Assembly: GCA_964019425.1 (NCBI GenBank)
Contig: OZ025789.1
Coordinates: forward strand, 558,001 to 622,000
Source: Flectonema sp. DT1601
Lineage: Eukaryota
Direction: 5' to 3'
DNA: 64,000 nucleotides
Position numbers and translations under genes: made by a program. The notes under the pieces are model-generated. The model saw only the letters and a list, made by a program, of their open reading frames with translations, ran no database searches and had not been told where the DNA came from. This document shows, piece after piece, positions 25,319-25,497 of the stretch (the stretch's first letter is position 1; each line of letters begins with the position of its first letter).

Positions 25319-25497
25319 ACACCGCAGTGTCCCCCTTACTTTCTTCGCTGAAGAGGGCTGGGTAAGGGGAATGGTCCGAAGAAAGATTTTTTAATTTTAG
25401 CCCGAAACCAACCATTATTTGTTTGTTGTCCTACGAACTTTTGCATTCGATTGAATTTTCCCGCCCCCTCCCCTTCTTTTGACTGATAACCATTAAT
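25319..25497 (+). mobile_element. Short dispersed SINE/retrozyme-like element, copy 1, with exact 18-bp target-site duplication
   Basis: actaacttcagggttttg occurs at both 25301-25318 and 25498-25515. Other array spacers carry a single uninterrupted version of the site (near 18668 and 23276). A second copy of the element lies at 45312-45461. Confidence 0.82.
25332..25410 (+). ncRNA. Candidate hammerhead ribozyme, non-circularly permuted topology
   Basis: Core CTGAAGA 25348-25354, GAAA 25404-25407, GTC 25374-25376. Stem I ctttcttcg/cgaagaaag (9 bp), stem II gggctgg/ttagccc, stem III cca/tgg plus the core A-U pair, and an extra helix ccccttac/gtaagggg. Confidence 0.72.

Follow-up and report, generated by a model that had tools for sequence, protein, structure and literature searches.

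The stretch of 64,000 nucleotides analysed here (hereafter, the window) carries two copies of a retroposed element, and our results support a non-circularly permuted hammerhead fold inside this element. Its three blocks follow the order C, S, G in the naming of Eckert et al. 2023 (PMC10085705), who, in the accessible part of their paper, report this type CSG from two unique sequences of soil metagenomes (the row in their supplement table gives 5, soil, DNA). The CSG topology is already known and barely sampled; the host and the mobile-element setting are new. A preliminary description of the site had recognised its order as non-circularly permuted; this order had already been described as type CSG. 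The parts of the ribozyme in copy 1 are as follows:

25332-25339, + strand: 5' strand of the extra helix, with 8 of 8 pairs to 25362-25369
25340-25347, + strand: 5' strand of stem I, also complementary to the core (predicted inactive hairpin)
25348-25354, + strand: core CUGAAGA (block C)
25355-25361, + strand: 5' strand of stem II, first pair G25355-C25403
25362-25371, + strand: 3' strand of the extra helix and AA linker
25372-25385, + strand: block S (5' strand of stem III, GUC triplet, 3' strand of stem I)
25386-25396, + strand: second linker, between blocks S and G
25397-25410, + strand: block G (3' strand of stem II, GAAA, 3' strand of stem III)

All hammerhead core bases are present in copy 1 and none of its helices is broken. 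Stem I has 8 of 8 pairs, stem II 7 of 7 (two of them G.U), stem III 4 of 4, and the extra helix 8 of 8. In standard hammerhead numbering, G2.1 is 25347, C3 to A9 are 25348-25354, and G10.1 (25355) pairs with C11.1 (25403). G12 to A14 are 25404-25406, A15.1 (25407) pairs with U16.1 (25375), C17 is 25376 and C1.1 is 25377, and by analogy the cut is predicted after C25376. The three segments had been placed at 25339-25361, 25372-25385 and 25397-25410, and these coordinates were correct on re-reading, as was the canonical G-C pair that opens stem II. The extra helix and stem I are also real, but C25339 had been counted twice, so that the two helices measure either 9+7 or 8+8 bp.

An order-free hammerhead descriptor gave one match in the 64-kb window on both strands. 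This match is the present site, in the order CSG, with 9 + 8 + 4 = 21 bp, compared with a best paired sum of 17 in 40 block-shuffled windows. Together with the pair counts, this bears out the claim that the core nucleotides are all present with matching helices. No credible type I, II or III arrangement was found for the core of copy 1; at loose thresholds the sole alternative, in the order CGS, has stems I and III of 2 bp. The site therefore falls outside the circular orders CGS, GSC and SCG of types I, II and III, as had been proposed. When the three blocks were folded as separate strands, the minimum-energy structure was the standard hammerhead three-way junction. Furthermore, a degenerate three-block pattern, derived from the sequence of copy 1, matched twice in the window and not once in 100 shuffles. 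Standard models miss the site, as expected: Rfam gave no hammerhead match there at gathering scores or at E up to 10, the latter returning six weak, unrelated matches nearby. The published CSG descriptors would miss it as well, because in the accessible part of PMC10085705 they require CUGAUGA and allow no more than 8 nt of linker. Claims that an element lacks a hammerhead may hence be wrong, since Rfam and the published descriptors miss such ribozymes.

According to the same accessible part, the published CSG structure has a helix of 8 bp against which stems I and II abut, each of 6 bp; its stem III measures 5 bp, and its linkers 2 nt and 5 nt. The window site shares with CSG-1 and CSG-2 the block order, the 8-bp extra helix without a linker to stems I and II, and the 2-nt linker to stem III, here AA. 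It differs in its core (CUGAAGA versus CUGAUGA), in its stems I, II and III (8-9, 7 and 4 bp versus 6, 6 and 5 bp) and in its second linker (11-12 nt versus 5 nt), and no sequence likeness beyond the core is evident by eye. The published sequences were obtained from soil DNA and have neither a known host nor a known role, whereas the window copy lies in a eukaryotic mobile element. CSG-1 and CSG-2 cleave in vitro at 0.004 and 0.026 per min, and Eckert et al. rated the evidence that CSG is biologically relevant weaker than that for SGC. Type-SGC hammerheads (HRIMA-1 and variants) differ from the window site in their opening point and come from virus-like metatranscriptome RNAs (PMC10085705, accessible part).

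The element and its insertion sites comprise the following features:

25301-25318, + strand: left target-site duplication of copy 1 (18 bp, begins ACTAAC)
25318-25331, + strand: 5' hairpin of 5 bp, into which three 5' junctions map
25319-25497, + strand: element copy 1, 179 bp, probably 5'-truncated
25427-25436, + strand: candidate 3' arm of a helix enclosing the ribozyme (partner absent from both window copies, pairing judged by eye)
25482-25497, + strand: A/T-rich 3' tail of TAA/ATT-like units, no poly(A), with similar tails in contig loose ends
25498-25515, + strand: right target-site duplication of copy 1, an exact match to the left
45296-45311, + strand: left target-site duplication of copy 2 (16 bp, begins AGTAAC)
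45312-45461, + strand: element copy 2 (core 45338-45344, C17 at 45366, GAAA 45396-45399)
45462-45477, + strand: right target-site duplication of copy 2, with two mismatches to the left

Copy 1 was inserted into a spacer that is homologous to the spacers of an upstream tandem gene array. The start of its 18-bp repeat occurs once in each of six paralogous spacers, all of them without the element. Removal of the element and the adjacent second insert restored colinearity, with 200 of 247 matches to the nearest paralogue over a rebuilt site of 263 nt. Both hallmarks of a retroposed element, target-site duplication and an empty site, were thus found, and so was a fixed 3' tail with variable 5' ends, in the two window copies and in contigs (few copies, loose ends only). 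We regard spread of the element by reverse transcription as very likely. Both copies are solitary and sit between genes, on the gene strand; the next pyrimidine-AG site follows about 400 nt later. The interpretation of the element as an intron at a 3' splice site was rejected, given this distance and the duplicated motif in intergenic spacers, and an internal RNA polymerase III origin seems unlikely given the internal T runs.

Several other features lie close to the two copies. The second insertion (25521-25611) directly follows the right duplication of copy 1, begins with about 28 T (a minus-strand poly(A) tail) and is bounded by a 14-bp near-repeat (25507-25520 and 25612-25625); its removal restores colinearity with the paralogues. 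Upstream of copy 1 are two adjoining, MITE-like inverted-repeat elements that are absent from the paralogous spacer, at 24797-25061 (38-nt arms, 79%) and at 25070-25236 (17-nt arms, 94%, TA ends); one RNA-run contig with foreign flanks matches 25153-25201. Directly 3' of copy 2, 45478-45545 is GC-rich and has no other match in the window.

Differences between the two window copies were concentrated outside the ribozyme. Only 2 of 66 core or paired positions differ, versus 12 of 80 elsewhere (Fisher p = 0.021), and all indels lie outside the fold. Of the two substitutions within the fold, one retains its pair as G.U; the other, a G-to-A at 45345 in copy 2, disrupts the pair that opens stem II. 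In total, 25 of 27 pairs are unchanged, one is changed on one side, none on both sides, and one is broken. The core and helices are therefore better kept than the rest between these two copies, with no compensatory change. The stem II break is private to copy 2, because all three contigs that cover 45345 read G. We think it highly probable that the CSG fold is under selection, and we would expect with fair confidence that the site cleaves in vitro.

Words of the element were sought in public runs, and small parts were obtained from two of these (X1 and X2), one an RNA library; such contigs neither show RNA ends nor prove transcription. Seven contigs match the region of copy 1, all with foreign flanks, and six of them match the element. 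They do not come from the window locus, because its unique flanks are uncovered. A contig of 389 nt spans all of copy 2 with six differences and extends upstream by about 230 nt. Some 13 letters of this upstream sequence recur in a second contig, which then diverges; the extension is read from loose ends of 30 letters in these two contigs, both from a single run. Since these two RNA-run contigs share sequence upstream of the 5' ends of the window copies, both copies are probably 5'-truncated pieces of a longer element, with the ribozyme probably about 120 nt from its 3' tail. The "short mobile element" proposed earlier is thus mobile, as the 18-bp duplication, the second copy and the empty paralogous sites indicate, but it is unlikely to be complete as a short element. 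Among the upstream letters common to both contigs is GUAGGACA, which is complementary to UGUCCUAC at 25427-25434 and followed by facing GA steps. Judged by eye, they would form an enclosing helix with a kink-turn-like motif around the ribozyme, its second stem being imperfect.

Three contig alignments run 7 nt beyond the tail into an ACTAAC motif, ACTAGC comes after the tail of one contig, and ACTAACT is present in two upstream loose ends. The agreement of these junction motifs with the duplications of the two window copies suggests A(C/G)TAAC as a preferred target, a motif that was defined after the fact; A(C/G)TAAC(T/C) occurs at 37 sites in the window on both strands. The 5' junctions fall at about 25319, 25322, 25323, 25403 and further upstream (copy 1 numbering). 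The predicted cut site is spanned intact in both window copies and in the 389-nt contig; one RNA-run contig starts at 25378 and another runs to 25381. A 252-nt contig from run X2 contains two partial copies 18 nt apart, the second of which looks like a deletion between the stem I GAAGAAA and the GAAA block. No tandem array, circle junction or partner element was seen in the window or in the contigs.

The longer upstream sequence and the varying 5' ends would also suit a ribozyme that belongs to a longer autonomous retrotransposon and, from the 3' untranslated tail of that retrotransposon, would cut read-through RNA or limit expression, the short copies being 5'-truncated by-products of uncut RNA without a circle. 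In the accessible parts of the sources, Penelope-like elements have hammerheads close to the 3' end (PMC8557442), and Diplonema has many retrotransposon ORFs (PMC10161547). However, no partner ORF was seen in the window, and three 5' junctions, one from each window copy and one from an RNA-run contig, fall within 5 nt of one another (25319-25323), suggesting that a short template or a particular stop point is preferred. If cutting were efficient and not followed by resealing, copies would be predicted to start at 25377, exactly at the predicted cut, and the few junctions available include none there. We consider the autonomous-tail explanation rather unlikely.

The degenerate three-block pattern was also run on sequence collections and matched 4 viral, at least 120 metagenome and at least 120 genome loci (at least 244 matches). 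No homologue of the window element was found among the matches listed in these viral, metagenome and genome collections, and the phage collection gave no match. When the 246 matches listed were scored on the four helices, copy 1 came first with 29, followed by L008 with 27 and L003 with 24, while 201 of the 246 scored 0. Copy 2 was outside the best 25 of the 246 matches listed, as expected from its broken stem II pair. Shuffling the unfixed letters 14,640 times gave a maximum score of 24, versus 27 for L008. A looser CSG pattern matched 120 viral loci, none with three stems of 3 bp or more (the scanner recovers the window site and L008), and the 3'-side pattern of the element had 0 matches. 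Two candidates were rejected. L003 was discarded as a CSG ribozyme, since it is in frame with a surrounding ORF of 361 residues and depends on a single long hairpin, with 1 of 14,640 shuffles reaching its score; at 490-600 of a 6.6-kb viral contig, its stem III has at least 11 bp and its other helices are weak. L245, the sole viral match of a family-specific 18-mer, lies inside an apparent coding region and shows no further likeness.

L008 (positions 897-986 of a 1074-nt metagenome contig), an independent CSG candidate, has the CSG order, a 10-bp extra helix, the AA linker and an enclosing helix, and its stems have 5/6, 5 and 7 pairs. Compared with copy 1, 13 of 23 pairs differ on both sides, nine are the same (six of them fixed by the pattern) and one is broken. 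L008 supports a shared CSG design rather than common descent, because the pattern by which it was chosen fixes six of its pairs and its registers were set manually. It would bring to three the number of unrelated sequences that share these four helices and the linker of 2 nt. No Pfam family was found in the ORFs or the three read-through frames of its contig, whose opposite strand is A/C-rich with broken reading frames.

The best nested fold of copy 1 is a predicted inactive hairpin of unremarkable energy (z = -0.81; nested folds only). In the nested minimum-energy folds of both copy 1 and L008, the extra helix encloses a pairing between the core and the 5' strand of stem I, in which core position 7 and its partner differ in step between the two. 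As far as two sequences can indicate, this suggests an inactive state that would form first during transcription and then be displaced. A retroposed structured RNA that merely resembles a hammerhead, has the nested hairpin as its stable form and does not cut would likewise have its core sequestered, and both the broken first pair of stem II in copy 2 and the slowness of the published CSG ribozymes (PMC10085705, accessible part) would suit it. Such a relic or look-alike is very improbable in our judgement, as the core and four helices of copy 1 are intact and score above all shuffles, the core region is better conserved than the rest, and the break of copy 2 is absent from all three covering contigs.

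The hammerhead might also form between two molecules or tandem units, the helix-closed C block of one pairing with the S and G blocks of the other, with no knotted monomer. In the accessible parts of the sources, amphibian retrozyme hammerheads cut better as dimers (PMC7229834), and Eckert et al. flagged as not obvious that a monomer can span distant helix ends with a 2-nt linker (PMC10085705); in addition, stem III has just 4 bp. Yet the 2-nt linker recurs in three unrelated sequence types (the window, L008 and the published CSG), which argues for a constraint within one molecule, and both window copies are solitary. We therefore hold assembly between molecules to be improbable.

Our analysis leans, with slight confidence, towards a knotted CSG hammerhead within one RNA molecule, cut after C25376, which would serve retrozyme-like cut-and-rejoin copying of a longer non-coding retroposon or of the tail of a non-LTR retrotransposon. 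The element would be transcribed in sense within a long multi-gene transcript of the host, because both copies lie on the gene strand between genes. The extra helix is predicted to form first, with the core in the inactive hairpin, and the active fold would arise only once the 3' half has been made, because the 3' strand of stem I must displace this hairpin. After the cut, stems I, II and III (about 19-21 bp) would keep the products together and so favour resealing, or unit-length circles from tandem copies. Finally, a partner reverse transcriptase may prime at the A/T-rich tail on A(C/G)TAAC sites, read through the intact or resealed ribozyme and stop variably upstream, leaving the 16-18-bp duplications that are seen at both copies.

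Copies with an intact ribozyme, the tail end and variable 5' ends fit tail-primed reverse transcription of a resealed or circular RNA. The cut-and-rejoin or circle step itself falls just short of probable, because intact copies would fit uncut RNA of a longer element equally well. For retrozymes, reverse transcription from resealed or circular RNA has been proposed (PMC7229834; bioRxiv 10.64898/2026.07.22.740005), and circles and longer duplications are described, most circles being made by a protein ligase and not by the ribozyme (PMC7229834); these statements, like those that follow, refer to the accessible parts of the sources. The window element resembles animal non-LTR retrozymes in being non-coding and low-GC, with one hammerhead per unit and duplications of more than 4 bp. 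However, theirs are type I hammerheads in tandem repeats of 170-400 nt with circles (PMC7229834; bioRxiv 10.64898/2026.07.22.740005), whereas the window element has type CSG and is seen as solitary and 5'-truncated copies in a protist host. With Penelope-like elements, some clades of which favour simple A/T-rich insertion sites, it shares a hammerhead near the 3' end; it differs in its clear 16-18-bp duplications, and no ORF, pseudo-LTR or inverted partial copy was seen for it here (PMC8557442). No reverse transcriptase with GIY-YIG endonuclease and no pseudo-LTRs were found in the window, and about 34 letters are legible of the 230 nt upstream in one contig. Naiad and Chlamys are reported without canonical hammerheads, and PMC8557442 makes no mention of euglenozoans or diplonemids in the text accessible to us.

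A wider reading, possible but doubtful, would make CSG hammerheads the ribozymes of an undescribed euglenozoan retroelement family. The clamp would be off during transcription, turned on by strand displacement, and its products held for resealing; a promoterless element might thereby cut itself from polycistronic RNA and copy itself from a circle into ACTAAC sites. If this reading were true, knotted hammerheads may be a hidden, widespread class in eukaryotic mobile DNA, because the design recurs in unrelated sequences.

The window likely belongs to a diplonemid host, as its helicase gene (47645-49483) encodes a protein that is 86% identical to that of Flectonema neradi, 54% to Rhynchopus euleeides and 49% to Diplonema papillatum. 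The long ORFs of the window lie on one strand; for D. papillatum, the accessible part of PMC10161547 describes unidirectional gene clusters, probable polycistronic transcription and many retrotransposon ORFs. No reverse-transcriptase family was found in the 67 window ORFs scanned. In the literature searched, which lay outside subscription journals and the supplements of preprints, type-CSG hammerheads were named only by Eckert et al. 2023 (PMC10085705), and among the papers listed none placed a ribozyme of this type inside a mobile element. Judged by titles and the opening lines of abstracts, none described a nuclear hammerhead ribozyme in diplonemids, and PMC13725137, on non-circular permutation and the hammerhead, makes no mention of CSG in its accessible part. 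The window site gives type CSG a host lineage and a mobile-element setting, and with a family of many copies, covariation, scars at the cut site and the formation of circles can be tested directly. With its long stems, it may also offer structural work a natural, doubly pseudoknotted hammerhead.

Two further features of the window were recorded. The tandem array at 14680-24464 contains seven ORFs of about 170 residues, with no Pfam family in the two tested, and the kinase gene at 26026 is preceded by a spacer that stems from the same unit. At 2706-3434, within a eukaryotic gene cluster, lies a gene of the Asp/Glu/hydantoin racemase family (PF01177, E 2e-39), a possible transfer from bacteria.
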